Origin: Candidatus Omnitrophota bacterium
Lineage (GTDB): Bacteria > Omnitrophota > Omnitrophia > Omnitrophales > JACROU01
Direction of reading: 5' to 3'
Assembly: GCA_029261035.1 (NCBI GenBank)
Contig: JAJDCD010000008.1
Coordinates: 300,480 to 364,479, forward strand
DNA: 64,000 bases
Below are positions 715-22,651 of the stretch, one piece after another. Made by a program: the position numbers and the translations under genes. The stretch's first letter is position 1; the number at the start of each line of letters is the position of its first letter. Below the pieces are notes generated by a model. That model saw only the letters and a program-made list of their open reading frames with translations, was not told where the DNA came from and searched no databases.

Positions 715-3700
715 CTAAGCTGAAGTCAGAACTCCTTGTACGTAGTTCTTCCATTCTTGAGCCCATTTTTGAATTTGCTCTGACAAGAAATTTGAAGCAT
801 AAGAATCTCTAGAATTTAAATTAATAGAAGCTTTTTGTTCTGGTGAAAGCTCACTAAAAGATAAAACGGCAATTCTTCCACTCAACACACGTACAAAGGC
901 CAAATCAGAATCATAATTAACTTGTTTTTCAGACGTCAAATCATTATAGATTCGAACAGAGTCCCCATACCCAAGGCCTTCAATTCTCTCTGAAGCACCT
1001 AAAAACACGGTGTGATTCATCAGCCCAAGTAAACGGTTCGGCAACTTAATTCCATGCTGCATAATGCCTCTATAAACTTGATTCATAAGCTTATATTTCA
1101 AATATTTTTTCAGTTCTTTTTGACTGATATTCGTTAGGACAATCACATCAAAACGATCTCCAATCACTTTCTGAACCCCATCCATTTGTGATTGAATTCG
1201 ATCAACCACGGATTGAACCTGAGTTACATCAGACCCCGTATAAATCAACCTGACAAATAATTCAGGATGAACTTTTAAGTTAGCAAGAATGCTTTGAATA
1301 TCACTTTCAGATAAAGGAGTATCTTCAATAACTTCGATTTGCAAACCCACTCCCCATTTTAGATCTGTAAGTAAAGTTGAAGCTTTCTGTAACAGATTTA
1401 CTTCTGTTTGAACATTCGATTCAAAATTGCCTGTATCTTCTTGTGATTGAGCGGAAGCTTTTAAATCAACCAGTTCTTCGATAAGAGTTCTCATAATAGC
1501 AATAGAAAATCCTTCAATTCTTTTTGAAAGACTTTCATAAGTAGGTAGAACAGAACCTAATGCAAGTGATGTGGATAAAACCAAAGATCTATTAAAAGAA
1601 GTCTTTTCAGAATTCAGCAAGGTTCCTAAACTGCGCGCAGTCACTCCACCAAGTTCCAATACAAGAGTTGACTGGTGCGGATTCGCGTCGCCCGTAACTT
1701 GTGTAGAAAGAAGTTCTACTTGAACAATCTTGTCTCGGTCTAGAGCCGCTAAAGGAGAGTTTGCTCCAGAAAATATACTGAGTCCTACATTCTGATTTTC
1801 AACTCCTTGGAACAAAAGGCTTTCTGCAATTGCTCCACTATTATCTGTAAAACGAATAATAAATTGTTGAGGCACATCCGTTGTTGTGCGAAGTAAATTT
1901 ATATCTAACTGATCTCCTAAGACAAAAAATGTATTGGGTTGAGTCGGAGTTAAAATAAACCCGCTTTCAGTATTTGTGGAATCTGTTGCAAAATTTAATG
2001 TTAGCTGCTCTGGATTTTGAGCATTCTGAGTTAAACTCGTTCCGCTAGAAGAATTACCTGTCTTTGTGAAGTCTGCATTTTGAGTAGGGTCAATGTTTCC
2101 AAGAGCTGCAAAGCTAGTTGTACTTAGAGCTGGAAAAGAGGCTCCTATACTAGTTTCACTTGAAGCAGCAAAGCCTTGAATTTCAACAATAACTTCCCCT
2201 GTCATTGTCTGGTCATCAGAAAGAACCAAATTAAGCTCTAAAACTTGTGCTAAATCAAAACCTGTAGGAATAGTTGCTGGGTCCAATAGAATTTCAAAAA
2301 CATGGTTATTAGCGGCTACCTGTTGAGCTAGAGTTTTGTATACTTCTCCTGCCCTATCTTTCAACTCAACTATAATACTAGAAGGAATACTCCCTGAAGC
2401 AAACTGAACATTCATACGAAATAAGCCATTCAAATTATTGAAATTCATAAAATCTTCAGGATCGGTAGGCTGAGGGGTGTCATTATTATTAGTCGTAATT
2501 TGCAAACCAGAAAATTCACCATTTTCTGTTTTAAATATTAGTTTAACTTTATTAGCCCCTATCCTCTGAACTGTTGTTCCAGGAACAGAGCCTCCTAATG
2601 TTTTAATTTCTGGAATTCTAGGGTTTGATGAGACAACTACAACAGAACTCAAACTTGTAGTCATCGCTGTTGGAACAGAATTTTGAGCTGTTATTCTTCT
2701 TAAAGAATTCACTCCTTGAAAAGTCACTCTCAGATCCCCCTCAAAACTGCCAGAAACAGATGTGTTCTGACTACTAATCAAACTAATCTCTAAAATACGA
2801 GTTAAGATCAAATTAACACTGGATAAAGGAACCCGTAAAGTCGCTTTAGAACCATCAAATTGAGTGATAGAAAAAGACTTGCTAAACGTAATTCCCATTT
2901 CATCAACAAACTGAACTTTAAATTCATTCGGTAAGTCCCCTGAAATTTTCTCAATATTGAATACTATTTCTGAAAAGGAAGAAATATCCATAAAGTCTTC
3001 GGCTGTTTTATTAGCAATCACTCCATTATCATCTTTATTATCTTTGGTAATAGTAACTCCACTATAATCAAAATTATTATTTGGATTTGTTGGCTGAGCA
3101 GTATGCTTATAGTGCCAAATAACACTATTCTGACTATCAAAAAAGACTGTCGTTTCTATGTTGCTGCCCCCCGTGACCTCTGCGAAGGATGTCCTTAATT
3201 GCCTAGGAAACAAAGTAGTACTGCTATCTACTACAGCCGGCTGAGACACGGCAATCTGCGGCAGACCAGCTGCAGTTCCAGAAGATCCAGAGTCACCTCC
3301 ATGATGACAAGCAGAAAGAGCAAAACTAACTAATCCTAATAGCATAACCATCTTTAAAGACGAAAGAGTAAACTTAAACCGAGGCAGATAACCCTTCAGA
3401 GTTCCACCCAAACTTCGAGCCATCAAAACATCTTCTTTAACAGACTGCTGGTTTTCTAATGCACTATCTAATTCTAATAAATTCCCTACCGAAAACTGAA
3501 CACCTGGTCTAAAGCTTTTCCAAGAAATCCTTAGTAGGGCCACTCCTTCAGAATCCAAAATAGGTAACACCTGAATCTCTTCACCCATAAATAAATCATT
3601 CTTTCTTAACTCTAATTGAAGAGTATGGGCTAACGATTGCAAATCTAATCTAGAGTCTGAATTTTTCACCAAATCAGTTATAGCTTCATGGATGCCCACT

Positions 3701-5460
3701 TTCACAAAAGCTTCCATCATCCATTTAACACGGTTGCGATCCCAAGCACCTAAGTCACTCTGATAGCCTTCTGCCATAAAAAGCTCCGGAACAATGTAAG
3801 ACTCAACAGGCTTCCTACTCTCTTGAACACGCCCTAATAAAACTTCTTCATAAATTTCAGATAAATACTGATCCCCTTCAGTACCTGTTTGATAAACTTG
3901 AGGAGCTATACTGATAAATCCTAAACCCCTACGCTTCATCTCTTCTTGAATTCCTTTTGTATGATACCCTCCAGTTACAAATGCAATAGCTGACGTCTTA
4001 TGTCTGTGACTTAAATGAACTAAATTATCAACAAATGATATTTCCCTCTGCTCTGCACCGTCATAAAACTCTAATGCTAATCGATATTGTTGAAGCAATG
4101 AAGATTTGGTTTCATTAAAATATTCAAAAAAATCAAGATCTAACCCCTCTACGGAAACCCCTAAAGAATCTATTATATTCTCCGATCTGCTTCTCACATG
4201 ATCTAAATCAGAACGTGAAGCTTCTAAAAACAACACTCTTTTCAATAAATGAAACTCTCTTTCAGCATGGATAAGTTCTTCTTCGTCATTAGATTTAGCC
4301 ATATTTCTTTCTAATCGGTATACCAACTGATCAAACTCATTAAAGAAAGCCGTTCCTTCAATCTCTTCCTTTAATATAAGATTTTTTAGAACCCTTAATA
4401 TTGAGGGAAAAGAGTCCCAACCATTAGAACTTTTGACAACATAAGTATGTAATTGCTCAAACATCTCTCTCCAAGTTTTATAATGAGCACTTAATTTAGG
4501 ATCTATTAAATTCATTGTTATTAATTCATGAATTAAAGCATTTAAGTTCAAAAGAGCATGCTTTTCATCCCTGAGTAATGCCCGCAAATTCTCTAACTCC
4601 TCAGAAAAAGTTTCAGCGCTATATTCCTCTGATTCATTTATAAGGAAATACATTCTATAAAGGTTGGGGTAATCTAGTTGAATTAAAGGATTTTCAAAAT
4701 CAAGAGCAAGTCTTTCCTCTGCCTCTTTTAAAGTTTTCTTATAAAAGTAAGGCGCATTCATAGATTTTCTATTTTGAAATGTTTGATATAACTGGTCATA
4801 CTTCAAAAGTTGAGGGTTATAGAAATTTGTTTTAAGCTTTGCTATTTTTAAATCTACTTGTTTCAATTCTTTCTTTACATCAACCTTTTCTTTAAGTGCT
4901 TTTCGAAACAACTTTATATTATCTTTATACCTATCCAAATCCTCTATCCCGCTTACATTGATCTCCGTAGAAGATCCACTCTGTTCTAAAACAAAAAGCT
5001 CGCCACCTGTAATAAGTCCTTTTTCTAATAAATAATTCGCAATTACTAAATTATTATTTTTATTTTCCGTGATCTTTAAGACATTCGGGTCTATTTTTTT
5101 ATGTGCCCCTTCAAAAGCAAACGTGTTTATATTGTAAGTATCTTTTACGTATTTTAATAAATGAGAAATCTTTCTTTGAATTGGAGCATTTGTATGGGCA
5201 TCTTGAATATGAATAAAAGTTGGGAGTTTCTGTGTTTCTTGTTTTGGTAATCGAAAATGTTGAATACTTCCAATATTTTCCGGAACAGAAAAACCTTTGA
5301 GCACTTTTATATTTTCGAAAGAATTAGCTTTAGGATTGATAGTAATGCTAGAAAAGTTAATTGGAGTTTGAGAGAAAACACTTGAAGAAATCATCATGAT
5401 CACAACTAAAAGAGAAATAATTTTTATATTATTTTTATAACTCATATGATTACCCTTCAC
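715..5460 (-). CDS. Giant secreted protein (1581 aa). N-terminal signal peptide, conserved N-terminal domain shared with the 17993-22651 paralog, and an internal hydrophobic lipobox-like segment (MVMLLGLVSFALSAC)
   Basis: Long ORF with a signal peptide. Shares QDAH and GG[YF]H motifs and a block of about 450 aa with the second giant ORF. Confidence 0.75.
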   Translation of the reverse strand: MKGNHMSYKNNIKIISLLVVIMMISSSVFSQTPINFSSITINPKANSFENIKVLKGFSVPENIGSIQHFRLPKQETQKLPTFIHIQDAHTNAPIQRKISHLLKYVKDTYNINTFAFEGAHKKIDPNVLKITENKNNNLVIANYLLEKGLITGGELFVLEQSGSSTEINVSGIEDLDRYKDNIKLFRKALKEKVDVKKELKQVDLKIAKLKTNFYNPQLLKYDQLYQTFQNRKSMNAPYFYKKTLKEAEERLALDFENPLIQLDYPNLYRMYFLINESEEYSAETFSEELENLRALLRDEKHALLNLNALIHELITMNLIDPKLSAHYKTWREMFEQLHTYVVKSSNGWDSFPSILRVLKNLILKEEIEGTAFFNEFDQLVYRLERNMAKSNDEEELIHAEREFHLLKRVLFLEASRSDLDHVRSRSENIIDSLGVSVEGLDLDFFEYFNETKSSLLQQYRLALEFYDGAEQREISFVDNLVHLSHRHKTSAIAFVTGGYHTKGIQEEMKRRGLGFISIAPQVYQTGTEGDQYLSEIYEEVLLGRVQESRKPVESYIVPELFMAEGYQSDLGAWDRNRVKWMMEAFVKVGIHEAITDLVKNSDSRLDLQSLAHTLQLELRKNDLFMGEEIQVLPILDSEGVALLRISWKSFRPGVQFSVGNLLELDSALENQQSVKEDVLMARSLGGTLKGYLPRFKFTLSSLKMVMLLGLVSFALSACHHGGDSGSSGTAAGLPQIAVSQPAVVDSSTTLFPRQLRTSFAEVTGGSNIETTVFFDSQNSVIWHYKHTAQPTNPNNNFDYSGVTITKDNKDDNGVIANKTAEDFMDISSFSEIVFNIEKISGDLPNEFKVQFVDEMGITFSKSFSITQFDGSKATLRVPLSSVNLILTRILEISLISSQNTSVSGSFEGDLRVTFQGVNSLRRITAQNSVPTAMTTSLSSVVVVSSNPRIPEIKTLGGSVPGTTVQRIGANKVKLIFKTENGEFSGLQITTNNNDTPQPTDPEDFMNFNNLNGLFRMNVQFASGSIPSSIIVELKDRAGEVYKTLAQQVAANNHVFEILLDPATIPTGFDLAQVLELNLVLSDDQTMTGEVIVEIQGFAASSETSIGASFPALSTTSFAALGNIDPTQNADFTKTGNSSSGTSLTQNAQNPEQLTLNFATDSTNTESGFILTPTQPNTFFVLGDQLDINLLRTTTDVPQQFIIRFTDNSGAIAESLLFQGVENQNVGLSIFSGANSPLAALDRDKIVQVELLSTQVTGDANPHQSTLVLELGGVTARSLGTLLNSEKTSFNRSLVLSTSLALGSVLPTYESLSKRIEGFSIAIMRTLIEELVDLKASAQSQEDTGNFESNVQTEVNLLQKASTLLTDLKWGVGLQIEVIEDTPLSESDIQSILANLKVHPELFVRLIYTGSDVTQVQSVVDRIQSQMDGVQKVIGDRFDVIVLTNISQKELKKYLKYKLMNQVYRGIMQHGIKLPNRLLGLMNHTVFLGASERIEGLGYGDSVRIYNDLTSEKQVNYDSDLAFVRVLSGRIAVLSFSELSPEQKASINLNSRDSYASNFLSEQIQKWAQEWKNYVQGVLTSA

Positions 5461-5718
5461 ATATTAACTTTAATTTTATTAAACATTTTTTAATATATTA
5501 ATAAAGATTGTTAAAAGTTAGCACATAGCTGAAAAATTGTCAAACTTAAAGTATTATTGAGATATATTGAGATATAAGGGTTTATTAAGAATATTTAGAG
5601 ATATATAAGGATAATTACTTATAAATGGTCTAAAATGGTGTTTTATATAAAGAATTTATAGAATTAGCTTATAAGTGAATTACTTAAAATATCTAATTTT
5701 GAGAGATAATGAAGAAAA

Positions 5719-5795: not shown

Positions 5796-5797
5796 AC

Positions 5798-6302: not shown

Positions 6303-7835
6303 TTAAGCTCTTTGTGTGACGAATGCAGTTACTTCTACATTGGGGCTATTCACTCTCTCAACATTAAGTAAAGCTAATGTTTGAGTACCTTCTTCAAAAA
6401 GTAATATATTATTTCCGGGAGCCAATTGAGTTCCTGCTGAACGAACAAACTCCTGAGCTATATTTACACTAATTAGTCTACTCGCAAGATCATCAAAAGC
6501 TGAACTTCCATTATTTTTAGCAATATATAAATCTGTGTTACTAGATGGTGAAGGGAATATACTGGGTGTTCCGGAAGCAAGAAAAGTTCCTGCAACTTCA
6601 TTTGGAACTGAAGAAACTGGAGCAAATTTTAATTGTAGTGTAGCAAAATCAATAAAGATAGATCCTCCACCAGCAGAAAAGCTAAAGCTTTGACGAATAC
6701 CAACATTATCACCCGGCTCATAACTCAACCTTATATCAAAAGGACCACTTTTAGTACCAAGCTTAGGATCAAAGACAAAAGAATTAAATACATCTAAAGT
6801 TCCATCACCAAATTTAGCTGTATTAGCAATTGCATAAGCACTATCTCCGGAATCCTGAATCAGTTCTATTCCAGTTGTTCCAAACCCTTGACTCGATCCA
6901 CCATCTATATCTTCGTTATATTTAATTGAAGGATTAAAACCAATAGCATCATTTCCATAACTGCCTCTAATTCCAATTTGGCCGATAGGATTTTGCGATA
7001 ACTCCAAACCATCTTCAGGCACATTCAAAAGAGCCCCTAGAGCTTTAGCAATATCAATTCTTCCTTTTGTTGATACCGCACTACTTGAACCTGAATCAAT
7101 TCCTTGATTAGTATTCCCTTGATTGTTAATAGCATCATTTCCACTTCGACCGCTAATAGTAGGTGTATTTAAGTTTGTTCCTGGTTGATTAGGAATTGTT
7201 CTTGAATCAAGATCAATAGTTTTTCCATCAACACCCACACTTCCCTCTCCTCTTCTTACTCCATAACCTTCTAAAGCGTCTTCTGCGCCTTGTGTAATAT
7301 CTGCATGAGCGGACTTAAATAACGAAAACCCTGTTTTGTTATTAGCAACAACAATTTGGCGTGGCTGAATTCTAAATGTTGCAGAAGAACCTGAAGAACG
7401 AGTAAGAATTATCTTCCCACTATCTCGATCCGTAATCTCTCGTGTCCACCTATATTGAACTGTAATCAAAAGAGGGTTCCCTCTTTGAACTTCAACGCTA
7501 TCAATTCCATTTAAAACCAGGCGTATATTCTCAACCAAATTATGATCTTCACGTATACTCACAGCAAAGTCAGCTTTTCTAAAACCTCTATCATTGGAAT
7601 AATCATCTGCAATGTATTTCATTACAGAACTATAATTACCTTTACTATACGAATCAAAAATTTTTCTTAGTGTTAAACTAGCAATTTGTTTTAACAGATT
7701 CTCATCAGCTAGTTTAACAAACTCTTCTTCTGAAATAACTGTTTTTGAAAACACGCTAGGATTAGGAACCACAGAACTAACAAAGAATACGCTAATCAAA
7801 ACAAAAATTTTAAGTGGTGTAATTATTTTTTTCAT
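6303..7835 (-). CDS. Secreted Gly/Ser/Asn-rich hypothetical protein (510 aa)
   Basis: Signal peptide MKKIITPLKIFVLISVFFVSSVV. Last gene of a tightly spaced minus-strand operon. Confidence 0.7.
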   Translation of the reverse strand: MKKIITPLKIFVLISVFFVSSVVPNPSVFSKTVISEEEFVKLADENLLKQIASLTLRKIFDSYSKGNYSSVMKYIADDYSNDRGFRKADFAVSIREDHNLVENIRLVLNGIDSVEVQRGNPLLITVQYRWTREITDRDSGKIILTRSSGSSATFRIQPRQIVVANNKTGFSLFKSAHADITQGAEDALEGYGVRRGEGSVGVDGKTIDLDSRTIPNQPGTNLNTPTISGRSGNDAINNQGNTNQGIDSGSSSAVSTKGRIDIAKALGALLNVPEDGLELSQNPIGQIGIRGSYGNDAIGFNPSIKYNEDIDGGSSQGFGTTGIELIQDSGDSAYAIANTAKFGDGTLDVFNSFVFDPKLGTKSGPFDIRLSYEPGDNVGIRQSFSFSAGGGSIFIDFATLQLKFAPVSSVPNEVAGTFLASGTPSIFPSPSSNTDLYIAKNNGSSAFDDLASRLISVNIAQEFVRSAGTQLAPGNNILLFEEGTQTLALLNVERVNSPNVEVTAFVTQRA

Positions 7836-7865
7836 TCTTTTCCCTTTTTATTAATTATGAATGAA

Positions 7866-8378
7866 TTACGGTGTAACACCAAAAATGGCAGCTCCGGTCT
7901 GGTCATTCAGAGTTGCTTTACCATTTTCAACTTCAAAAATAAATTGCGTTTGTCCTTGCATCAAAATTGGGGCTGTTGCCATAACCATCTGAGGCATCCA
8001 AGAACGATCCCAATGAAAATTGATACTTACATTATTTCCTTCTGCTTCTATATCATCAATGAAGTATTCTATACGAATTACGTCAAATGTCTGAAAGTCA
8101 TTCTCAACTCTATCTTTAAAATCCAGGTAGCCTCTATTAAAACGATTATTGATAAGATTGAAAAAAGTAAATAGACTTTCTCTTTCAAAAGCTCGGACTA
8201 AATCATCCAGAGCCTTCTTAGCCGCTTTAATATTCTCAGTTTCATTCGCTGTTACTGGATAATCAGTTTCCTTAGCGTTCGCATTATAATTCTCTGACGG
8301 CTTACTAGCAAAAGCAATGCTAATCGCACTCACCATCATTAAAAAAACAATTATTCTTATTTTATTCATAAGTGTCAC
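7866..8378 (-). CDS. Secreted hypothetical protein (170 aa)
   Basis: Signal peptide ending AFAS. 8-nt gap to the upstream OMP gene. Confidence 0.65.
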   Translation of the reverse strand: MTLMNKIRIIVFLMMVSAISIAFASKPSENYNANAKETDYPVTANETENIKAAKKALDDLVRAFERESLFTFFNLINNRFNRGYLDFKDRVENDFQTFDVIRIEYFIDDIEAEGNNVSINFHWDRSWMPQMVMATAPILMQGQTQFIFEVENGKATLNDQTGAAIFGVTP

Positions 8379-8386
8379 TTCCTTAC

Positions 8387-10033
8387 TTAGTACTTAAATT
8401 GTAGACGTACAGAACCCACATTTTCTTCAAAATCACTGATACTTCTTTGGAATTCTTGGTCATATTGTCTCCAAGAGACTACAAGCATCACATTGTCCAA
8501 GATGTCATATTCTGCGTTAATTCTCCATGACTGCCTATTCGTATCTGTATCCGCAAAAGAACTATCCACATAATTAATACCATAATTAAAATTAACACGA
8601 AGACGGTCGAAAAATTCAGCTCTCATCCCCCAAACAAAATCACGAAAAGTGCTTCTGTTTGGAATATCATCCAAACGATCATTTCTCATTGTCATATCAA
8701 AATAAGGAGCTAACCAAAACTGATCGAATTTCATGCGATGATCAAAACCAATTCGATATTCATGAACTGTTTGATCCGTAACACCTGCATCATCGGTTCT
8801 TTTTCTAATATCATAACCACCACGAAGATTAATCCCATAAATAAGTTGTTTAGAAACTTCAACCCCAGTCAAATGAGTATCTGTATCTGTTAATGAGTTC
8901 GAAGCTTTTACATGTCTGTAATCATAAAAAGGACGAATAACAAAGTCTGTCATATTAGAAAATGGTGTTATGTCTAAACTAAATCGAGGATTAAATGTAC
9001 GCGTTGATGTGATGATGTCATCATCTAAATTATTACGAAGAGTTCTAAGGTTTGAGTTCAAAGTCCAATACTGATTAAAGATTTGTCTCCAACCAGCATA
9101 AAAAGCTTCTCTGTCACCCACAAACGAACCGGATGAAGCAATAAAATCTGGCTTCACACGATCATAATCAAAGCTGATGTACGATTGCCCCATTCGACTA
9201 TCAAAATTGTAATCTGTTTTTAATGTAAAAGCTGTTCCGTGAAGATCCCCGGCAATCACCTGGTCATCATGATCTCCCGTAATGGATTTAGCCAACTCAA
9301 GTTCAATTCTTAAATCATCAATAGCCCTGATCTTAATATTACCACCAACAAGAAAGTTGTTTAAATCAGCCACACCCAGATCAAACTTTGTACTTCCACC
9401 ACTATCAAAGGTATGAACCACCGTCTGACCTAAAGTAATATCATTAATCACATCTTTAATAAAAGGAGTTTCTGAAATCCAACTTTGAGGCACTTTTTGA
9501 TCTACATGATAACCCCAAACATAACGCGTATTTCTGACCCGTTCCAAACTACGAAATTGACGCCCTGCGATTAAATTCAGATTTGTTCCTGCTCGCTTAT
9601 TCCAGTCCGCTTTAAAATTAAAACCTTCAAAAGAACGATTTAAAGTGAGGTTCGTAAATTGTGTATAAAAATCACCAAAAGTTAATTGGTAATTTTTGTT
9701 ATATAACTTTGAGGTTAACTGTAAAAGATGGACATCTTGACGTGTATCTACTTGTTGATCGTCGGTTTTACGAACACGTATGTCGGTGTCCCATCTCCAA
9801 CCATTCTTCAATTTCTTTCGTGCATTTGCAATGAAGTCATTTGTTAAACTATAACCTTCATCTACAAAAGAAAGATTTTCATTCCCATCAATCTGAGAAA
9901 AACTTCCTGTCTCTATAATACTTCCTGAAATGCTTGTATCTAGGATTTCAATCTTCGCATAAGCAGGATTAAGAGAAAGAGCCAAAATAACCAAAAGTGC
10001 AATAAATGATTTTATTTTAAGTTGTTTTTTCAT
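8387..10033 (-). CDS. Outer-membrane β-barrel protein (548 aa)
   Basis: Signal peptide ending AYA. Alternating amphipathic β-strand pattern. C-terminal aromatic residue (…RLQFKY). Confidence 0.6.
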   Translation of the reverse strand: MKKQLKIKSFIALLVILALSLNPAYAKIEILDTSISGSIIETGSFSQIDGNENLSFVDEGYSLTNDFIANARKKLKNGWRWDTDIRVRKTDDQQVDTRQDVHLLQLTSKLYNKNYQLTFGDFYTQFTNLTLNRSFEGFNFKADWNKRAGTNLNLIAGRQFRSLERVRNTRYVWGYHVDQKVPQSWISETPFIKDVINDITLGQTVVHTFDSGGSTKFDLGVADLNNFLVGGNIKIRAIDDLRIELELAKSITGDHDDQVIAGDLHGTAFTLKTDYNFDSRMGQSYISFDYDRVKPDFIASSGSFVGDREAFYAGWRQIFNQYWTLNSNLRTLRNNLDDDIITSTRTFNPRFSLDITPFSNMTDFVIRPFYDYRHVKASNSLTDTDTHLTGVEVSKQLIYGINLRGGYDIRKRTDDAGVTDQTVHEYRIGFDHRMKFDQFWLAPYFDMTMRNDRLDDIPNRSTFRDFVWGMRAEFFDRLRVNFNYGINYVDSSFADTDTNRQSWRINAEYDILDNVMLVVSWRQYDQEFQRSISDFEENVGSVRLQFKY

Positions 10034-10045
10034 AGGCTTATCCTA

Positions 10046-10384
10046 TTAGACTTCAACTTCTTGTTTTATTCTTAATAATTCTCTATTCACCAACTCTGCT
10101 TTACTGCTAAGAGATAAGTTTTCAGAATCTTCCCTGCCATCTAACAATTCAGAATCCGGTATCTTTGTTGGTTCAGGAACTTTCTTGCCCAAAACAACTC
10201 CTATAACTTGTTCCCCTGTGTCCACAAGCTTTTCATCTACAATATTACCGGCACGGTTCAAACTGGCTACGTTTCCTTTACCATTAAAAAAAGCCGCATC
10301 GGTTTGCACGGCAAAAGCTGTGCCTACAGATAAAACAACAATACATACAAATAAAGGTAATACTTTAAATAACTGTTTCATCAT
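10046..10384 (-). CDS. Small secreted/periplasmic protein (112 aa)
   Basis: Signal peptide ending AFA. Sits between the FecR-like and OMP genes. Confidence 0.55.
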   Translation of the reverse strand: MMKQLFKVLPLFVCIVVLSVGTAFAVQTDAAFFNGKGNVASLNRAGNIVDEKLVDTGEQVIGVVLGKKVPEPTKIPDSELLDGREDSENLSLSSKAELVNRELLRIKQEVEV

Positions 10385-10385
10385 A

Positions 10386-10865
10386 TTAATAAACCTTTAC
10401 TCTAAATGAAGTTCCTCTAGCTCCAACAATTGCCGTAGGTGTTTTTACTTTAAATTGGGAACCAGAACGTGTTTTGGTATCAATAAGAATATTACCGATG
10501 GCTAAATCAAGAAGGGTTGACTCTACACCGCTTTTTTCATCAAGAGACAAATCGCTAATCCTTAACTCACTGTTGTTAGCAACTTTAATCATTGAGTTCT
10601 GCCCCACACTCTCAATAGACAAAATAGCGGTTGCATTTGCCGTTGTGCGAACAGCGTCGTTTTGATTTAAAACAACACCTTTACGGGCAACTTTCCAATC
10701 TGTTTTATTTGCTTGAAGATATTCGACGCGGCCATCTACATTAATCACTGTGGCTTGTCTTTGAACTTGTGCGTAGGAAAATGATGGGACTAAATTAACT
10801 AGTAAAAACGCGAGTGCTAAAAAGGATGAAACTTTAAGTAAAAATCCATTTTTTCTTAATGTCAT
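10386..10865 (-). CDS. FecR-domain protein (start probably at internal Met MTLRK…; the ORF extends to 10925)
   Basis: Signal/anchor segment followed by a FecR-like motif (…AIVGARGTSFRVKV). GGAG SD before the internal ATG. Confidence 0.6.
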   Translation of the reverse strand: MTLRKNGFLLKVSSFLALAFLLVNLVPSFSYAQVQRQATVINVDGRVEYLQANKTDWKVARKGVVLNQNDAVRTTANATAILSIESVGQNSMIKVANNSELRISDLSLDEKSGVESTLLDLAIGNILIDTKTRSGSQFKVKTPTAIVGARGTSFRVKVY

Positions 10866-10967
10866 AATTTTTGACTCCATTAAGTTTTGGTCATTATGTC
10901 CTGTAGAAAGAGTTTCGTCCACCAAATTATGAAACTTTAGTAAATAGTTTTGCGATTATAGGACGCT

Positions 10968-12749
10968 CTATTTATTGTCTTCAATACCTTCCTCACCCAC
11001 ACTCCCTTGTGGTTCTTTGGCTGCAAGAACTTTATTTCTACCTGTTTCTTTAGCCACATAAAGGGCATCATCCGCTCTTTTTATAAGTTCTGCTGTTGAA
11101 GCATCTCCTGCAATACAAGCAACACCCGCACTAATCATTACGGTATGAGAAGTATTTCCATCCTTTATTTTATGAAGCTCTGTATTCTTCCTCATACGCT
11201 CAGCAATAATCATCGCTTCGTCTATACCTGTTCCTGGAAGTAAGACAATAAACTCCTCCCCACCATAACGTCCTACGATATCTAACTCTCGAACACTCAA
11301 ACGAAATGTCTTAGCAACCTCTCTAAGAACTAAATCTCCTGTTTGGTGACCATACGTATCGTTAAATCCCTTAAAGTGATCAATGTCTGTCATCACTACA
11401 GAGAATATCTTATCCGGTTTACTTTTTTGTTTTTTAAATTCTGCATCCAAGAATAGCTCGAAATGTCTTCGATTAAACAACCCTGTTAAACCATCCCTTG
11501 TTGCCAACTTCTCCAGACGTTTCTTCTCAACCGCTAAATGAATCTCTGAATAGAGAGTTGCAGAAATAAAATTAAGTAACACAGCTAATACTGGAGAAAG
11601 TATCGCAATCCAAACACCATAAAAAACTAATAGAACAAAACTCCCTAATAGATATAAAACAATCGTAGATAAAACCAGAACAATACTCGTTCCTGTCTTT
11701 TTCCTAAAGATTGCCATACTTGCAAATAACGACAAAACTAAAATAATAACAGCATTCCAAGCCTGACTTACAGGGTATATAAACTTTTGCGTCAAAAGAT
11801 TTTGGATAATATTTGCATGAACCCCCACCCCTGGATAAACTGGCTGCAAAGGAATAATCTTAATATCTGAAAGCCCCAAAGCCGTTAGACCAATAATCGC
11901 AACCTTCCCCTTAAGCTCATTCAAATCAATCATAGGCTCTTCACCCATCTGTTTTTGCTTAAACGCTTGAATAATCTCAAGAAAAGAATAGTGTTTAAAG
12001 GTATTCTTCCAACGCCCAACCCAGTTAATCCAAATACGATAACGGTTATCAATTGGAATAATAATATTGCCCCTTTCTTCCATAGGAACTTCTATCCACT
12101 TCCCTTTCTTAATAATTAAATCCTCAAATAGGACCCCCCATTGATCCAAGCAAGCCTGAAACGAAATAGAAGGATATAATTGACCCCTTTTTTCAATTAT
12201 TAAAGAAAATTGTCTGATAACTCCATCATCCCCAGACTCTATATTGATATGGCCCATTCCTTTAAGCCAATCCCTAAACTGTTTAACGGGTTGATACTGA
12301 GTAGCATAACGAATAACCCCATTTTCTTCAAAAGCCTCAAAAGCATAAGGAAGGTAGACTATCGGGTTTTGTTTTAGAGCGATCTCAAAAAGATTATCTT
12401 CTTCTGGAGGAGAGCTTTCCGTGAATAAAATATCGTAGACAACCTGCTTGACTTCAAGCTGGTTAAGAATAGAAACAATAGCAGCGTGATATTTTCGAGC
12501 CCATGGCCATCGACCAAAAGCCTTAATTCCATCCTCCGCCACTTCAATCAGAACAATTTGGGGATGTGATTGTTGCTCGGGTTTAATTTTTTGGAAGAAA
12601 TCATACGAAAGAAGTTCTAGAGGTCTTAGAAGATGAAACAAAAATAATGAAAGAATCAAAAGACTACCAAGAAACCCAAATACTATTTTTATATCACCAC
12701 TTCGAAATTTCAGTCCCATAAGGTCCTTCACAATGTCACCCTCGAACAT
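10968..12749 (-). CDS. Membrane diguanylate cyclase with periplasmic CHASE2-like sensor and C-terminal GGDEF (GGEEF) domain
   Basis: TM, approximately 300-aa extracytoplasmic region, three TM helices, then RYGGEEF…DHFK GGDEF signature. CHASE2-FecR gene adjacency is a known association. Confidence 0.75.
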   Translation of the reverse strand: MFEGDIVKDLMGLKFRSGDIKIVFGFLGSLLILSLFLFHLLRPLELLSYDFFQKIKPEQQSHPQIVLIEVAEDGIKAFGRWPWARKYHAAIVSILNQLEVKQVVYDILFTESSPPEEDNLFEIALKQNPIVYLPYAFEAFEENGVIRYATQYQPVKQFRDWLKGMGHINIESGDDGVIRQFSLIIEKRGQLYPSISFQACLDQWGVLFEDLIIKKGKWIEVPMEERGNIIIPIDNRYRIWINWVGRWKNTFKHYSFLEIIQAFKQKQMGEEPMIDLNELKGKVAIIGLTALGLSDIKIIPLQPVYPGVGVHANIIQNLLTQKFIYPVSQAWNAVIILVLSLFASMAIFRKKTGTSIVLVLSTIVLYLLGSFVLLVFYGVWIAILSPVLAVLLNFISATLYSEIHLAVEKKRLEKLATRDGLTGLFNRRHFELFLDAEFKKQKSKPDKIFSVVMTDIDHFKGFNDTYGHQTGDLVLREVAKTFRLSVRELDIVGRYGGEEFIVLLPGTGIDEAMIIAERMRKNTELHKIKDGNTSHTVMISAGVACIAGDASTAELIKRADDALYVAKETGRNKVLAAKEPQGSVGEEGIEDNK

Positions 12750-17335: not shown

Positions 17336-17974
17336 ATGATAAAAAGTATTTTTATTCCCGCAATTGTCTTATATTTAGCGATCCCAAAAATCGAGACTTC
17401 AGCTGTAAGCGTACCTCAAATTTCTCAGCTTCAAAAACAGCTCCTGGATCAAGGTCGTGTCCTAGTTGAAGAAGTAGCCACTCCACATAAAAGTGGACAG
17501 ACTTTTAAGGCTATCACTCTGGTTGATGCCAGCGTTAATGATGTATATAAAATTTTAACTCAATTCAAAAACCACAAAGGTTTTATGCCTAATGTAGGTT
17601 CTTCAGATGTTATTGAAAAAAACAAAAAATCTGCACTCATCAATTACACTCTTAATTTACCTTTAAATCAAACAAAGCGTTACCGCATTCAAACCGAATT
17701 TAAGAAACACAAAGATGAAGCATTGATTCAATGGAAAAAATCGGAATGGCCCGAACTAACAGAGAAAGAAACAATTGCAGATACGGAAGGTTATTGGCTT
17801 ATTAAAAATGATCCTCAATTTCAAAACAAAACGCTTTTAATCTACCAACTTTACGCAGATCCAGGACATGTACCGTCTGGATTTAAATGGATTGTAGATC
17901 GCGTTTCCAAACAATGCATTCCAGATACGGTCGCCGCAACAAGAGATTACATCCACAAAAAGTTTAATCGATAA
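17336..17974 (+). CDS. Secreted hypothetical protein (212 aa)
   Basis: N-terminal signal peptide. One of the few plus-strand genes in the first half of the window. Confidence 0.55.
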   Translation: MIKSIFIPAIVLYLAIPKIETSAVSVPQISQLQKQLLDQGRVLVEEVATPHKSGQTFKAITLVDASVNDVYKILTQFKNHKGFMPNVGSSDVIEKNKKSALINYTLNLPLNQTKRYRIQTEFKKHKDEALIQWKKSEWPELTEKETIADTEGYWLIKNDPQFQNKTLLIYQLYADPGHVPSGFKWIVDRVSKQCIPDTVAATRDYIHKKFNR

Positions 17975-17992
17975 GCAAAAGAAAATACAGAT

Positions 17993-20900
17993 TTATGCAG
18001 CGCGGGAAATGAGGAGTTGAGATTCGTTCGCTTGAATTAATGCTAAAAGAGATTCTTTAACAACAGAAAAGAACCCGTCTACTTGTTTTAATCCATACTC
18101 CATCAAAAACAAATTCTTATCTTTAGCTTGAGTGTAAAGTAGAGCTACACCCAGAAGCCCATTGTCATCATTAGGATATCTAAACTTATTACCCCCTATT
18201 AAAGCAAAATCCTTGGAAGGATCTACGGTACGTGAAAGGTGTAAATTATGCTTCGCTTTACGAACTTCTTTAGATGCTTTCTGCTCGCTATGAGAAGTAA
18301 AGTAAATATTAGGAAGGTTAAGTAAAGGGTGTTTGTTGAACGGACTTGCATTTACGACTACCACCTGAAGTTGTTTTTTGTTTCTTAACGCATATTTAAA
18401 TATTTCATCCAGTTGTTCTCGAGAGAAGTTTTTCAAATCTTCATAATTAATAAATAAATTTACTCGCTCTTTAAAAGAACTCAAAGTTGTAATATCCAAC
18501 TTGCTTTGAATCGTTGGCACGACAGCCCCCAAACTCTTCGCATCCGAAAGCCTTCTTTCATTCGGGTGTAATAGTTCAGGAAAATGCTGGCCTAAGTATT
18601 TATACCTATCACTTAGTGGCGCATACCAAACCTTAAGACTTCCATCTTCTGTAGCTGTTGCCAGACGACTTCCATCAGGGCTAAACAAAACAGAAAGAAC
18701 TGGGCTATCATGTACAAGGGGCTCGCCAAGTAAGCGCTGTGTTTTTTCTTTCCAAATACGGACAGTACCGTCATCGCTAGCTGTGGCTACCTTATCACTC
18801 TTAGGGCTTAAGACCGCCGCATTCACAGCTTGATCATGCCTCAGCTTCTTGCCAAAACGACTTGCTTTCTTTGTGTTTCTATATAACTGTCCATAATCGT
18901 TGCTCGCAACTAAAATACGGTTTCCATCAAAATTATAATCTACGTCAGCAACTGCATTTTTGTGTTTTATTTCTTCTCCCACCAGTTCTCCCGCAGCAAT
19001 GTCCCACCGATGTATCGAGTAATCTTCAGTCACGGTAAGCATCTCTGATCCTGTTCTATTAAAACGAACTAAAACCACTTTCTTCTCGTGAATAAAAACT
19101 TTTTCCAATTTCTCCCCTGATTCTCTTTGCCAAAGATAAACATGTTTATTCGATTGACTAAGAGTTGCAACCAACTCCCCACCAGGGCTCATAACTGCAA
19201 AGCTAACTGTTCCAAGAAAAGTCTTAAGTTTCTTAATAATGGGCTCTCCCGTCTCTACATCTAAAATTTGAGCTGCCTTATCTTTGCCATAAGTAACTAG
19301 CTGTAAACCATCTGGGCTAAACCTTTCTCTTCCCCTATTACTAGAAGAAAGCAACCGTTTTACTCCTAACTTCTCTTCCCACAACGAAGGAGATCCCGTA
19401 GCAAGTTCTAATTTTCTTTCTCCATTTTCTCCTGTAACAATTTTTAATACCCCACCCGTTCCCTTGCTTGTTTTCTTAGAGATAGATGCTCGTAACCTTT
19501 CAGATCTAACCATCTTTCTCACAACATTACTTTCCACCAAAAGATGTGATCCCTGTGGATTGAACTCTATATTCGTAATTGATCCATCCAATTTCAAAAA
19601 CTCTCCAACGGGACTTTGTTTTCTTTTATCAACATCCCAAACACGAACATTACCTTCATTGCCTCCTTCAACAATGTGGGTAGCATCTGGATAAAAAGCC
19701 ATTTTTCCTCCACCCCCTGAGCCTGCTTCCATTAAAAACGAATCCTTAACGGGTTGAGACCAATCAAAAACACCTTCAGAATCTATTCTTTGATTAATAA
19801 CTCGTAATACATTTGTTGTTGAAAGCATTTGTTCTAATACTTTTTTATTTTTTGCATAAATTGATTCAAATAGTATTTTCCTTATTCGTAGAAGGTCTTC
19901 TGGCCTAAGCTGGCTGACCCATTCCAACATTTCAGACTCACGAGAAAGACCTAATAGGACAAGTCGTTTTTGTTCTTTGAAATTAGGGTCCGAAAGAGAG
20001 AATGCCAAATCCCACGCTTCACTAAAATCCGGGTTATCTATAAAGGACTCTCCATCCCAAACATACTTACCCGTAGCAGAGTCTTCCTTTGGTTTAGATG
20101 GCACATCCCCTTGTTTATCACTGATAACCATCGTTCTGCCAGAGTCTTTAACTTTCCTAATCTCTACTCTCATAACCTCTACAACACGGGTTAAAAATTG
20201 TGTTGTATTGCTACCTTCATAGATATTTCTTAAATCAATATTCATTTCTGATAAAAATTCCAAAGTTATATCTCTGACACTCGGTTCAAGAGGGGCCATC
20301 ATATCATCCATGCTTCCAAAAATTTGAGTGTTAATGAACAACTCTAGATCATTAGGGTGAACAGCTTTTGCTAACAAATCTTTTGCTAGTTTATGTTCTA
20401 ACGTTTCTCCCTGACTTGATCCTAAAGATTGACCTTCATGTTCTTCTGCTACTCCTACAGCGTCCGAATGTTGCGTCAAAAACTCGGATAAAGGCTGCTT
20501 TGCTAAACGAACAGCTTTAATTTCTATAATTCTGTCTCCTCCTCCAAGCCAAGTAAGTGTGATATGAGTTAAAGGCTTTTCGGATGGAATTAATCCAACT
20601 TGCATTAACTTCCAATAATTATCTCTACCTAATTGAATATTAGCTGAAGCTAAACGAGTATCATAAGAACCTTCAGAATAATTCCATAATTCTAATAACC
20701 ATAAACCACCATCTACTGTCGAAGGGTTTCTGAATTTGATATTTACAAAATTATAATCTGATAAATCTCTCGCCCATTCCAACTTCATCCTTGCTCTTGG
20801 ATCTTCTTGAGAACCTCCTTTATTTTCATAAAAAAGAAGAGTCTCCCTCCCTGGCTTAGCCATTCTTGTGAAGAATTTAGATCCCATAGCCTCATCGTGG

Positions 20901-22651
20901 GTATAATCTAAAAGAATCGGGCCACCTTCTGGCAAGTCAACATAGAACCCTGGGTAATATTTAGAATCCGACGCTAAGCGAATAGATCTGTCTCCAGATT
21001 CTACTGAACCATAAGAAAAGACTGGCGTAGATGGTTCAGGTTTCATGGTTTGATGAATTGAACAAGACACAAGTGTGAGAACACCTCCTAAAGCTGCCAA
21101 ACCAATGGCTCCCGAAAAAAGACGCTTTAAACCCTTTCCCAAACTCGCTGCATTAGATAATACAAAACCTTCTGGATAGGCATTAAATATAAAAGGGTCT
21201 CTTTCCTTAACATCTGCTGACGGAAACACGCCTACTTCTCTTTGCCTTTGCATTAACCGAAGTCTTTGTCTTTGAGCATCAACATCCCTTAAAGCAATCT
21301 CGAAAAAAGAATGTGGCCTGGAGGCTTCACTCATTGTCTTAACATCTTCAATGCCAACACTATCTTCAGACATAATCCTTTTATATTGAGCTTGATGACG
21401 AGAACTTATTTCAGAAATACGAGGAGAAACAACAACATAGGACACACCTTTATCTTTAAGAATTTGCTTAATCGCATTTGAATGGAACCCACCAAAAACA
21501 AGAATGGCCAAATTTTCTTGAGAAAAATCGACAAACTTTCCTATATGGTTTTTTATAGACTGATCTCTAGCATTAGCAATTTCATAAAAACGAATAGATT
21601 TTTCAATATTCGATTCCCATCTCTTAGAAAGTACAATAGACTTTTTTCCATAAGAAGAAATAAAATCAATGCATTCCCGCGTATTTAAAGAGGCAAGAGA
21701 ATCTTTAACAACTTCATACTCCTCCTGAGTAATTTCTACCGCATTCAATCTTTCCAGAAGAGCAAATCCCTTATGATATCCCCAGAGCTTTAAATCCCTT
21801 TCACTATCTAAATATTGAGAAACAAGATCGTTCTCCATCAACTCAACTTCAGCAAACAAAGTCTTAGCATCTATTTTTTTCATCTGTTCTTGAGATCCTT
21901 TTACATCCACCTGCTCTAGTTCTCTTAGTAAAGCAATCGAAGGGTACCTTGAATCCAAATCTATGTTACTTAATAGCTTTTCGGTTCTTTTTAAATAGTC
22001 GAATAAATTCAATTCTTTCCTATCCAATTTTCCTCTAAGTTTCATCCATCGTTTAAGCTCATTCGGAAAGTATCTTTCTGTTAAAACTTTTATTTCTTTT
22101 TGAAGCTCACGCAGGTCGACCTTAACTTGTTGTTTAACAACAGAGGATTCTTTGTATGCCTTAATGTTTTCTAAATGCAGTTTTATTTTATCAACACCTA
22201 TCAATTTAAAATCTTTTTTACGATTAATATGAGCATACTCCGCACCGCTAATCCGAAGTTGATCCATCAAGTCAAAAGATACTTTTTCTTTAACTTTAGG
22301 ATCTTCTATGTCCCCAAAGAACTCATCACTAGGAACAGGTCCTTCATAACCTTCTTCAAAAACAGTTTGAATCCCATTTTCACTCACCATATATTGTATT
22401 ATTTTTGATATGTTCTCTTGCGCTTCTAGAGAGTCGTGCGCATCTTGAATATAGATAATTGTTTTATCACTCTTTCCAACAAAAGACTCTTCCACAGAGC
22501 CCCATTCTTTGGGAATAGTAATCGAAGCCTCCGGATCCGCATACCCCGATGGAGCATATTGAAGAACCGTGAAAAACATGAATGAAATAGACAGAAAAAT
22601 AGCGGTGGGCTTATAAAATAGATGAGGTTTTAACTTAATTTGAAACTTCAT
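17993..22651 (-). CDS. Giant secreted protein (about 1550 aa), paralog of 715-5460. Conserved N-terminal domain, internal lipobox-like segment (LAALGGVLTLVSC), C-terminal WD40 β-propeller
   Basis: Probable start at internal Met MKFQIKL… (ATG 22649-22651, signal peptide ending GYA). WD40-type repeats with VWD/LWQ/RWD/IWK/VWY motifs. Confidence 0.75.
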   Translation of the reverse strand: MKFQIKLKPHLFYKPTAIFLSISFMFFTVLQYAPSGYADPEASITIPKEWGSVEESFVGKSDKTIIYIQDAHDSLEAQENISKIIQYMVSENGIQTVFEEGYEGPVPSDEFFGDIEDPKVKEKVSFDLMDQLRISGAEYAHINRKKDFKLIGVDKIKLHLENIKAYKESSVVKQQVKVDLRELQKEIKVLTERYFPNELKRWMKLRGKLDRKELNLFDYLKRTEKLLSNIDLDSRYPSIALLRELEQVDVKGSQEQMKKIDAKTLFAEVELMENDLVSQYLDSERDLKLWGYHKGFALLERLNAVEITQEEYEVVKDSLASLNTRECIDFISSYGKKSIVLSKRWESNIEKSIRFYEIANARDQSIKNHIGKFVDFSQENLAILVFGGFHSNAIKQILKDKGVSYVVVSPRISEISSRHQAQYKRIMSEDSVGIEDVKTMSEASRPHSFFEIALRDVDAQRQRLRLMQRQREVGVFPSADVKERDPFIFNAYPEGFVLSNAASLGKGLKRLFSGAIGLAALGGVLTLVSCSIHQTMKPEPSTPVFSYGSVESGDRSIRLASDSKYYPGFYVDLPEGGPILLDYTHDEAMGSKFFTRMAKPGRETLLFYENKGGSQEDPRARMKLEWARDLSDYNFVNIKFRNPSTVDGGLWLLELWNYSEGSYDTRLASANIQLGRDNYWKLMQVGLIPSEKPLTHITLTWLGGGDRIIEIKAVRLAKQPLSEFLTQHSDAVGVAEEHEGQSLGSSQGETLEHKLAKDLLAKAVHPNDLELFINTQIFGSMDDMMAPLEPSVRDITLEFLSEMNIDLRNIYEGSNTTQFLTRVVEVMRVEIRKVKDSGRTMVISDKQGDVPSKPKEDSATGKYVWDGESFIDNPDFSEAWDLAFSLSDPNFKEQKRLVLLGLSRESEMLEWVSQLRPEDLLRIRKILFESIYAKNKKVLEQMLSTTNVLRVINQRIDSEGVFDWSQPVKDSFLMEAGSGGGGKMAFYPDATHIVEGGNEGNVRVWDVDKRKQSPVGEFLKLDGSITNIEFNPQGSHLLVESNVVRKMVRSERLRASISKKTSKGTGGVLKIVTGENGERKLELATGSPSLWEEKLGVKRLLSSSNRGRERFSPDGLQLVTYGKDKAAQILDVETGEPIIKKLKTFLGTVSFAVMSPGGELVATLSQSNKHVYLWQRESGEKLEKVFIHEKKVVLVRFNRTGSEMLTVTEDYSIHRWDIAAGELVGEEIKHKNAVADVDYNFDGNRILVASNDYGQLYRNTKKASRFGKKLRHDQAVNAAVLSPKSDKVATASDDGTVRIWKEKTQRLLGEPLVHDSPVLSVLFSPDGSRLATATEDGSLKVWYAPLSDRYKYLGQHFPELLHPNERRLSDAKSLGAVVPTIQSKLDITTLSSFKERVNLFINYEDLKNFSREQLDEIFKYALRNKKQLQVVVVNASPFNKHPLLNLPNIYFTSHSEQKASKEVRKAKHNLHLSRTVDPSKDFALIGGNKFRYPNDDNGLLGVALLYTQAKDKNLFLMEYGLKQVDGFFSVVKESLLALIQANESQLLISRAA

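Follow-up and report, generated by a model that had tools for sequence, protein, structure and literature searches.

Long Omnitrophota proteins with a predicted TIKI-like head and genome-specific linker motifs as possible polyprotein-like precursors

A and B are two long open reading frames (ORFs) on the minus strand of a 64,000-nucleotide stretch of DNA, referred to here as the window, from a Candidatus Omnitrophota bacterium (contig JAJDCD010000008.1, positions 300,480 to 364,479). They belong to a family of secreted proteins in which an N-terminal domain (the N-domain), a short linker motif repeated at module borders, variable cargo and a conserved C-terminal domain follow one another behind a Sec-type signal peptide. 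The interpretation favored here, to which we give slightly less than an even chance, is that A, B and their family are polyprotein-like precursors processed at the linker motifs. A first-pass annotation of the window had described A and B as two giant paralogous secreted proteins with lipobox-like segments in mid-ORF, and its description and interpretation are supported as a whole. It did not include the wider family of long ORFs, the linker motif or the C-terminal domain, and these alter the likeliest meaning of the internal lipobox.

The N-domain family and its linker motif

The N-domain is 410–490 amino acids (aa) long. BLASTP aligns the N-termini of A and B in two collinear segments (E = 3e-8 and 6e-6, ~21% identity), which, together with the family alignment, identifies the N-terminal block shared by the two ORFs as paralogous N-domains. 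At this level of identity, A and B are anciently diverged paralogues. Searches of Pfam, NCBIfam and the PDB (phmmer and profile searches) with the N-domain returned nothing above threshold. With the B N-domain as query, 5.8 billion proteins yielded 51 relatives, none with a Pfam family over the domain; few of them are named, and nearly all of those named are hypothetical proteins of Candidatus Omnitrophota. A scan of GTDB with one genome per species recovered 145 relatives, often three or four per genome. The locus and motif statistics below rest on 80 relatives kept from these 145, almost all from Omnitrophota or unclassified metagenome-assembled genomes (MAGs). The exceptions by label are one Eisenbacteria relative among the 51 and one Planctomycetales relative among the 145. 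The N-domain family is unannotated in Pfam, NCBIfam and the accessible literature, and it is almost entirely restricted to Omnitrophota.

In an alignment of 24 sequences, Q-D-A-H, two glutamates, F-Y...R and G-G-[FY]-H are invariant or nearly so. The IQDAH and GG[YF]H motifs highlighted in the first-pass annotation are located in both A and B. In this alignment, the A N-domain groups with a longer-insertion subfamily (P0046–P0050) and the B N-domain with the main subfamily. Of 75 relatives, 70 have a Sec-type signal upstream of IQDAH.

In most of the phylum, the regions between modules carry the pentapeptide R-[SA]-E-x-R. RSE.R occurs 303 times in the 80 ORFs (181.5 thousand aa, kaa), against about 5 copies expected by composition and 2–7 for permuted patterns, and RAE.R occurs 74 times in the same ORFs. 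Flanking ORFs (177.5 kaa) hold 22 copies of RSE.R, nearly half of them in 5'-truncated huge ORFs whose N-termini are unseen; in this flanking set, none lies in an ORF that is 5'-complete, at least 700 aa long and without the N-domain. The linker motif thus appears essentially confined to N-domain proteins, a near-confinement that calls for a functional link. Its placement is also regular. The first copy lies 58–146 aa past GGFH in 72 of 78 proteins (median 108 aa), a copy stands 174–214 aa before the C-terminus in 8 of the 10 complete proteins with a C-terminal domain, and other RSExR copies sit between Pfam domains.

Selection on the motif acts at the peptide level: a single genome spells RSELR with six Leu codons, six Arg codons and both Glu codons, so that synonymous positions vary freely, and the DNA on either side is not conserved. 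For the same reasons, and with x often encoded by a non-start codon, the motif was rejected as a DNA or RNA element such as a Shine-Dalgarno sequence plus start codon, a recombination site or a repeat.

The variant of the motif follows the genome. RSELR makes up 18 of 18 copies in four paralogues of one MAG and 21 of 22 copies in three paralogues of another; a third MAG uses RSEAR (12/15), and RAEVR or RAELR is found elsewhere. Within-genome variant identity is 0.366, as against 0.127 after shuffling, and none of 2000 shuffles reaches the observed value. The N-domains of these paralogues are diverged, with 42–52% identity within one genome, and are no closer to one another than to proteins of other genomes that use other motif variants. 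A genome-specific variant shared by proteins with diverged N-domains means that the motif behaves like the recognition site of a genome-shared, co-evolving factor. Literature searches turned up nothing relevant on these motif strings or on cleavage sites in Omnitrophota giant proteins.

Architecture of A and B

The features of A and B are given below, all on the minus strand. Residue numbers count from the first codon of each ORF, so that the start methionines are M6 in A and M23 in B.

715..5460, minus: ORF A (1581 codons); probable coding sequence (CDS) 715..5445, 1576 aa, start M6 (nucleotide 5445)
5371..5445, minus: A, Sec-type signal peptide, aa 6-30, MSYKNNIKIISLLVVIMMISSSVFS; hydrophobic window and tripartite shape read from the sequence
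3841..5298, minus: A, predicted TIKI/Ere/ChaN-like N-domain, aa 55-540, of the long-helical-insertion subfamily
5194-5208 and 3961-3972, minus: A, N-domain motifs IQDAH (A85-89) and GGYH (A497-500)
3406..3420, minus: A, linker motif copy 1, ARSLG, aa 681-685
3307..3405, minus: A, internal lipoprotein-signal-like segment, aa 686-718; basic n-region, h-region MVMLLGLVSFA, lipobox LSAC
1639..3306, minus: A, cargo, aa 719-1274; Ser/Thr/Asn-rich, no family match
1624..1638, minus: A, linker motif copy 2, ARSLG, aa 1275-1279, immediately 5' of the C-terminal domain
718..1623, minus: A, A-type C-terminal domain, aa 1280-1581, ending ...VLTSA
17993..22717, minus: ORF B; probable CDS 17993..22651, 1552 aa, start M23 (nucleotide 22651)
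22538..22651, minus: B, Sec-type signal peptide, aa 23-60, ...FTVLQYAPSGYA|DP
21308..22537, minus: B, predicted TIKI/Ere/ChaN-like N-domain, aa 61-470, from a structural model, Foldseek and homologues
22436-22450, 22349-22360, 22235-22246 and 21482-21493, minus: B, N-domain motifs IQDAH (B90-94), FEEG, GAEY and GGFH (B409-412)
21137..21151, minus: B, linker motif copy 1, AASLG, aa 523-527, 114 aa past GGFH
21062..21136, minus: B, internal lipoprotein-signal-like segment, aa 528-552, KGLKRLFSGAIGLAALGGVLTLVSC
20435..21061, minus: B, first cargo module, aa 553-761; no family match
20420..20434, minus: B, linker motif copy 2, GQSLG, aa 762-766
18617..19750, minus: B, WD40 beta-propeller, aa about 990-1367; the part before it (aa 767-989) is helical
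18527..18541, minus: B, linker motif copy 3, AKSLG, aa 1393-1397, 181 aa from the C-terminus
17996..18526, minus: B, B-type (family-wide) C-terminal domain, aa 1398-1574, ending ...LISRAA

Both ORFs therefore encode large secreted proteins, each on the minus strand and each with its own Sec-type signal peptide. The assigned start of A agrees with the database protein P0052, which is identical to it, 1576 aa long, and begins at M6. The term "giant" is relative: at ~1,550 aa, A and B are small for a family whose ORFs usually exceed 2,800 aa. The cargo of A has no match in Pfam or NCBIfam scans and is homologous to the central parts of the A-like proteins P0053–P0056. By eye, it may contain beta-sandwich modules. 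BLAST found neither internal repeats in the A cargo nor similarity between the cargoes of A and B. The parts that follow the lipobox, which had been called unrelated, are nevertheless not wholly so, for both carry the same kind of linker motif at their module borders.

A and B contain no copy of RSExR. The motif of this low-GC lineage is [AG]-x-S-L-G, present as ARSLG (A681, A1275), AASLG (B523), GQSLG (B762) and AKSLG (B1393). Across all six frames, the window ORFs of at least 100 aa contain [RKA]SLG only in A and B, apart from one further case. When the C-terminal 1,022 aa of A served as query, an exhaustive HMMER search returned five relatives, P0053–P0057, of 1,334–2,397 aa. Together with A and B, these proteins hold 30 copies of SLG against 6.8 expected, nearly all of the form [AG]-x-S-L-G, and a single copy of R-[SA]-E-x-R, in P0057. 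In the RSExR lineage, SLG is at chance level (82 vs 76). In B, the first copy follows GGFH at a distance close to the family median and the last falls within the family range of distances from the C-terminus; in A-type proteins, xSLG lies 280–318 aa before the end, directly preceding their longer C-terminal domain. Matching position and near mutual exclusivity together support the equivalence of xSLG and RSExR. B has an N-domain of the main subfamily, yet it uses the SLG motif of its own genome, which appears to be the same genome-level concert as in other genomes.

The codons of the motif serine are also distinctive. Serine is encoded by TCN in 95% of RSExR copies, where the first arginine is CGY in 81%, and by AGT in 9 of 9 true xSLG copies (from window A and B and from L083), against a background of 18–35%. 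Such fixed codon families suggest that all copies within a lineage descend from one ancestral linker.

P0057 (1334 aa) combines an A-type C-terminal domain and two GSSLG motifs with an N-terminal part of another pattern, G-x-S-H...E...G-A-M-H (HGISHG ... SGAMH), in which Pfam finds nothing. This part looks like another TIKI/TraB-type domain.

An internal lipoprotein signal behind the first motif

Each ORF has one strong internal hydrophobic window, and, as the first-pass annotation had noticed, each window ends in a lipobox-like sequence, which is ...LSAC for A 697-718 and ...LVSC for B 532-552. The whole of A has a single cysteine, C718. Two ordinary N-terminal lipoproteins encoded in the same window have the lipoboxes LVSGC and LVIGC, and the internal signals resemble theirs. 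The segments at A 686-718 and B 528-552 have the basic n-region, the hydrophobic h-region and the lipobox [LVI][ASTVI][GAS]C of a lipoprotein signal; they do not stand at the N-terminus of the precursor but begin internally, at aa 686 in A and aa 528 in B. In A, B, P0053, P0054, P0055 and P0056, xSLG lies 27–45 residues ahead of the lipobox cysteine, with no domain in between.

In the A-like homologues, the n-region carries a twin-arginine motif (P0053 GRRRVLKG, P0054 TRRKLTFG, P0055 TRRDVLRG, P0056 SRRTVLKW) with the pattern (T/S/G)RR-x-(V/L)-(L/T)-(K/R/F), and the Pfam model TAT_signal (PF10518) gives a sub-threshold match at aa 847-867 of P0056. The Tat consensus here is (S/T)-R-R-x-F-L-K; the n-region of A is without RR (PRFKF), and B has KRLF. 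These four full-length homologues, at 25–39% identity, keep the fused order of N-domain, hydrophobic segment and cysteine. Homologues without the segment had been named in advance as a finding that would speak against the first-pass reading; in P0053–P0056 the segment is kept. The same conservation, together with the lack of any consistent internal start or Shine-Dalgarno sequence, bears out the earlier view that the ORFs are true fusions. A split-gene counterpart was considered and rejected: a stand-alone N-domain protein, P0002 (431 aa), exists, but the next gene encodes a fasciclin-domain protein rather than a lipoprotein half.

Internal twin-arginine-like signals also occur deep in other giant ORFs, at roughly aa 900–1110 of L057 (MTRRALVKGG...), L066 (TRRQFLGG...) and L070 (TRRVFLTAGA...). 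They come shortly after RSExR in L066 and L070 and after an AEVR-type string in L057. In the A/B lineage, the homologues show the pairing of linker motif and putative internal signal to be conserved.

Predicted fold and active site of the N-domain

An AlphaFold2 (AF2) model of the B N-domain, built from the family alignment, has a predicted local distance difference test score (pLDDT) of 88.4 and a predicted template-modelling score (pTM) of 0.82. It contains a beta-alpha-beta core with strands at 27-33, 59-62 and 112-116 and a second beta-alpha-beta unit at 344-350 and 367-373, the two being split by ~230 residues of helices. The top three Foldseek matches in the PDB are EreC (6xcs) and the Bacillus cereus Ere-like structures 3b55 and 2rad, and ChaN (2g5g) ranks fifteenth. 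All scores are weak (E = 0.012–0.34, TM about 0.2), as is expected given the large helical insertion. PF04187 (Haem-binding uptake, Tiki superfamily, ChaN) matches three family members below threshold (E 8.5e-5 to 4.5e-3; 17–22 bits vs a cut-off of 27.7), and these partial matches fall on the FY..R...GGFH part. A and B themselves have no PF04187 match, and no curated family model reaches its gathering score over the N-domain. The likeness to the TIKI/TraB/ChaN fold that had been tentatively proposed from sequence motifs is thus returned by two independent routes, though weakly in both.

The structure paper on RRSP lists 3B55 and 2G5G among TIKI-superfamily folds and places a 2His/2Glu catalytic set (E-x-H, E, H) where the core strands end; RRSP itself is a site-specific endopeptidase, and the superfamily also takes in esterases and the haem-binding ChaN (PMC6254334). 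In the model, D-A-H, the Glu of FEEG and the His of GGFH come directly after core strands 27-33, 59-62 and 344-350, with Asp in place of the first TIKI Glu, the register relative to RRSP/Bcr135 being taken from the described residue pattern (PMC6254334) and not from superposition. We consider it very probable that the N-domain has a TIKI-superfamily (Ere/ChaN) fold and represents an undescribed family within it.

The N-domain would share with the superfamily (EreA-C, Bcr135/136, ChaN, TraB/PrgY, TIKI1/2, RRSP) a predicted parallel-sheet alpha/beta core and the order D-x-H, then E, then G-G-x-H after core strands. Like RRSP of MARTX, it is a module in a very large multidomain exported protein. 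It differs from these relatives in its ~230-aa helical insertion, in the Asp and Gln that replace the first Glu, and in being always N-terminal behind a Sec signal and almost only in Omnitrophota; hydrolase activity, established elsewhere in the superfamily, is here only predicted.

C-terminal domains and cargo

Ten of 12 complete relatives end in a ~180-aa domain finishing in ...[VIL]-x-x-[AS]-A. A hidden Markov model (HMM) built from 10 other genomes, without window sequences, finds this domain in B (E = 2.8e-11) and P0019 (4e-8) and does not find A. The WD40 propeller recognized earlier in B is well supported, with PF00400 scoring 82.6 bits (cut-off 27) and numerous propeller models covering aa 990-1367, but it does not form the C-terminus as had been stated, since this separate conserved domain comes after it. 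A ends instead in a domain of ~300 aa, common to P0053–P0057 and finishing in ...VLT[AS]A. A single C-terminal domain common to A and B was rejected on a profile comparison (hhalign E = 0.04, probability 1%), and the two are treated as separate types. The AF2 model of the A-type domain is marginal (pLDDT 66.6, with an alpha/beta core at 70–90) and retrieves only generic Rossmann/GT-B-half matches in a fold search. Large database searches with the C-terminal domain gave no match, and a metagenome scan with the A-type domain returned the P0053 locus only.

Most members of the family are longer than A and B. The N-domain ORF runs off the 7-kb flank or the contig end in 68 of 80 loci, most at ~2,800 aa or more, and the 12 ORFs with a stop inside the locus, one of them cut at its 5' end, measure 1,248–2,770 aa. 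These loci show a common plan of Sec signal, N-domain, linker motif, variable cargo, motif and conserved C-terminal domain. In four complete members, Pfam identifies the cargo as a transglutaminase core, an alpha-amylase, sigma-70 r2/r4 with a methyltransferase, and radical-SAM with HAD; sequence patterns of the receiver-like, Rossmann-like and P-loop kinds occur in other relatives. Many relatives, though not all, have transmembrane segments beyond the N-domain. Stand-alone N-domain proteins of 431–514 aa, with neither motif nor cargo, also exist, and the motif is absent from minimal members of ~690 aa that consist of the N-domain and C-terminal domain only.

The cargo of two loci is of a cytoplasmic type. 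L007:6836-13057 encodes a Sec signal and N-domain followed by sigma-70 regions 2 and 4 and a SAM methyltransferase, and L015:6821-13591 encodes the same head followed by radical SAM/4Fe-4S and HAD modules. Such modules are hard to reconcile with export of the whole chain. Directly 3' of P0053, on a 2.17-Mb contig, L083:10053-18878 is an ORF of > 2,942 aa with a signal peptide and repeated 'NYDDFGT...' modules, in which neither an N-domain nor motif enrichment was found.

Processing and alternative explanations

In the polyprotein-like reading, a genome-specific factor would recognize the linker motifs as processing sites. On the most economical assumption, the cutting would be done by the TIKI-like head itself, acting as a site-specific endopeptidase as TIKI and RRSP do; alternatively, one shared genome-encoded factor could cut. 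Scission at the first motif of A or B would yield a fragment headed by a complete new N-terminal lipoprotein signal peptide of 27–35 residues, and in the A-like homologues the freed signal would carry a twin-arginine motif. The freed cargo could then be exported and lipid-anchored independently, and the motif ahead of the C-terminal domain would release that domain. An uncut chain is hard to reconcile with the usual topology rules. The Sec signal exports the head, the second signal needs its chain in the cytoplasm, and there is no return helix between them, a problem that scission at the motif removes.

Several points weigh against this reading. Cleavage is a prediction from sequence patterns. 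The motif variant tracks the genome and not the N-domain phylogeny, so a single trans-acting factor would fit at least as well as the head. Because a Sec signal precedes the head while the second signal must be recognized in the cytoplasm, the cut would need to be made before the head is exported. A hydrophobic segment follows 7.6% of RSExR copies, compared with 3.2% at random positions, so that exposure of a signal would be a special case and not the general role of the motif. The two motif versions, xSLG and RSExR, have only the serine in common, and it comes from different codon families. Finally, the fold search gave no function for the C-terminal domain.

A rival explanation is that the proteins are never processed and are single-chain, two-anchor membrane proteins, with the TIKI-like domain in the periplasm, the internal segment as a stop-transfer sequence, the remainder in the cytoplasm, and the motif serving as a hinge or partner-docking site. 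The WD40 propeller of B and the radical-SAM, sigma-70 and methyltransferase domains of relatives are typically cytoplasmic, many relatives have several downstream transmembrane helices, and published topology predictions for Omnitrophota long proteins are mostly signal peptide plus transmembrane (10.64898/2026.06.07.730766). The internal segments themselves fit such a topology poorly: their h-regions are only ~14 residues long, and their basic residues (4 in A, 3 in B) are N-terminal, whereas the positive-inside rule would place them on the other side of an out-to-in helix. The twin arginines and lipobox cysteine kept in the four A-like homologues would be purposeless in this arrangement. The lipobox cysteine of A is, moreover, its only one, and a hinge leaves the genome-specific motif variants unexplained. 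A single unprocessed chain is accordingly judged unlikely, while keeping an appreciable share of the probability. A nested gene is a weaker alternative, with only a slim chance of being correct. Here the SLG leucine or a nearby ATG would start a separate lipoprotein, making the fusion apparent only. This leucine is TTG before the lipobox in both A and B, a start there yields textbook lipoprotein signal peptides, and A has an in-frame ATG (M680) three codons upstream, behind the weak purine run aaagaaga. The TTG codons of A and B are, however, preceded by no Shine-Dalgarno-like sequence, whereas other window genes have clear AGGA/GGAG; elsewhere the SLG leucine is TTA, many RSExR copies have a non-start codon at x (GCG 28, CTT 16, GTC 14), and the motif ahead of the C-terminal domain would be left unexplained.

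It is also conceivable, if improbable, that the N-domain is not a protease but an esterase, another hydrolase or a cofactor/haem binder of the Ere/ChaN kind, acting on prey or the environment, and that the motifs are cut or bound by an unlinked enzyme, for instance one of the C39 or S8 peptidases that other giant proteins are reported to carry. The superfamily includes esterases and ChaN, and these are the best matches; the motif variant goes with the genome and not with the N-domain lineage, and stand-alone N-domain proteins exist that have neither motif nor cargo. The near-confinement of the motif to N-domain proteins and the conserved D-x-H / E / H set count in the other direction, as does the Pfam scan of A, B and four complete relatives, in which no peptidase domain was found.

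Comparison with known systems

MARTX toxins carry an InsP6-activated cysteine protease domain that cuts after Leu inside the host cell, and cleavage of the linkers frees their modules. A and B resemble them in being large modular secreted proteins with a resident (here candidate) protease and inter-module linkers, a resemblance that is functional only: no Pfam match to the MARTX cysteine protease domain or to RTX repeats was found in A, B and the four relatives scanned. In multi-core precursors of ribosomally synthesized and post-translationally modified peptides (RiPPs), such as the cyanobactins, recognition sequences flank each core. Cyanobactin precursors and viral polyproteins share with the present family a short, repeated, lineage-specific motif that brackets the units of a precursor; the units here are whole folded domains of 200–900 aa, and the cognate protease is only a candidate.

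The A/B segments have the n-region, h-region and lipobox of lipoprotein and twin-arginine translocation (Tat) signals, with the twin arginines themselves present in the A-like homologues. Internal Tat signals are known from Sec/Tat dual substrates, for example the actinobacterial Rieske proteins, and the internal position of the signal in the A/B family is similar. Unlike in those substrates, the signal lies 500–850 residues inside the ORF, behind a domain with its own Sec signal, and the number of prior membrane passes is odd rather than even, which would be unworkable as a single chain.

A further parallel is with the Omnitrophota giant proteins ("archaeovorins"), which come from the same phylum and in which enzyme-like domains are strung together behind a signal peptide. 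The family described here has the archaeovorin-type traits of Omnitrophota origin, signal peptide and concatenated enzyme-type domains, although A and B are well short of the length of more than 30,000 aa that marks archaeovorins. The N-terminal regions of giant proteins have been described as lacking identifiable domains (West-Roberts et al. 2023, 10.1101/2023.11.21.568195; Seymour et al. 2023, PMC10066038), and the papers on Omnitrophota giant proteins contain no description of the N-domain, the linker motif, a cleavage site or the C-terminal domain.

Neighbouring genes in the window

The genes around A and B, which include a FecR/CHASE2-GGDEF pair, a TPR protein, a lipid A acyltransferase and glucoamylase-like proteins, give no functional clue. 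At positions 6303-10384, between A and B, the minus strand encodes a run of four proteins of 510, 170, 548 and 112 aa, each with an N-terminal signal-like segment; the three that were scanned have no Pfam match, and the 548-aa protein ends in ...RLQFKY, as outer-membrane barrels do. At 10386-12749 lie a FecR-like protein and, after it, a CHASE2-GGDEF diguanylate cyclase, which together look like a small signalling pair. Genes for PF10091 ("putative glucoamylase") lie at 24013-25908, just upstream of B, and at 31998-34148. The gene for P0002, the stand-alone B-like N-domain protein, is also near a PF10091 gene (L001:5188-6945), which suggests loose synteny.

Further along, a tmRNA gene (27380-27787, minus strand, 173.7 bits) adjoins smpB (27888-28364, minus strand). 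From 44660 to 64000, the GC content rises from about 0.36 to about 0.42. A tRNA gene (44660-44732, plus strand) abuts a large serine recombinase gene (44714-46546, minus strand), followed by genes for a YhcG/DUF1016 nuclease, GT2, a TolC-like OEP, TrbI/VirB10, CagX/VirB9 and a VirB4/TraC ATPase (59079-61598). This region probably represents an integrative conjugative element that entered at the tRNA gene.

Implications for Omnitrophota giant proteins

How Omnitrophota make, export and use chains of thousands to > 100,000 residues is a recognised puzzle; such chains combine cytoplasmic-type enzymes with surface modules behind one signal peptide. One tentative answer, somewhat doubtful on present evidence, is that the large and giant ORFs of this phylum are bacterial polyproteins, split at a genome-specific pentapeptide by the TIKI-fold head or by another co-evolving mechanism into separately targeted proteins. 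On the polyprotein model, cytoplasmic enzymes would stay inside, whereas a module headed by a Sec, Tat or lipoprotein signal of its own would undergo export; as the smallest examples, A and B would lend themselves to experiment.

Relative to the accessible literature, the N-terminal domain with its predicted protease/esterase fold, the border motif that varies in concert within each genome, and the C-terminal domain are new handles, and the three make the processing of Omnitrophota giant proteins a testable question. A and B, at ~1.55 kaa, are short enough to clone and express. If the polyprotein model is true, it would reveal a polyprotein strategy in free-living or epibiotic bacteria and would alter the annotation and topology prediction of such ORFs.

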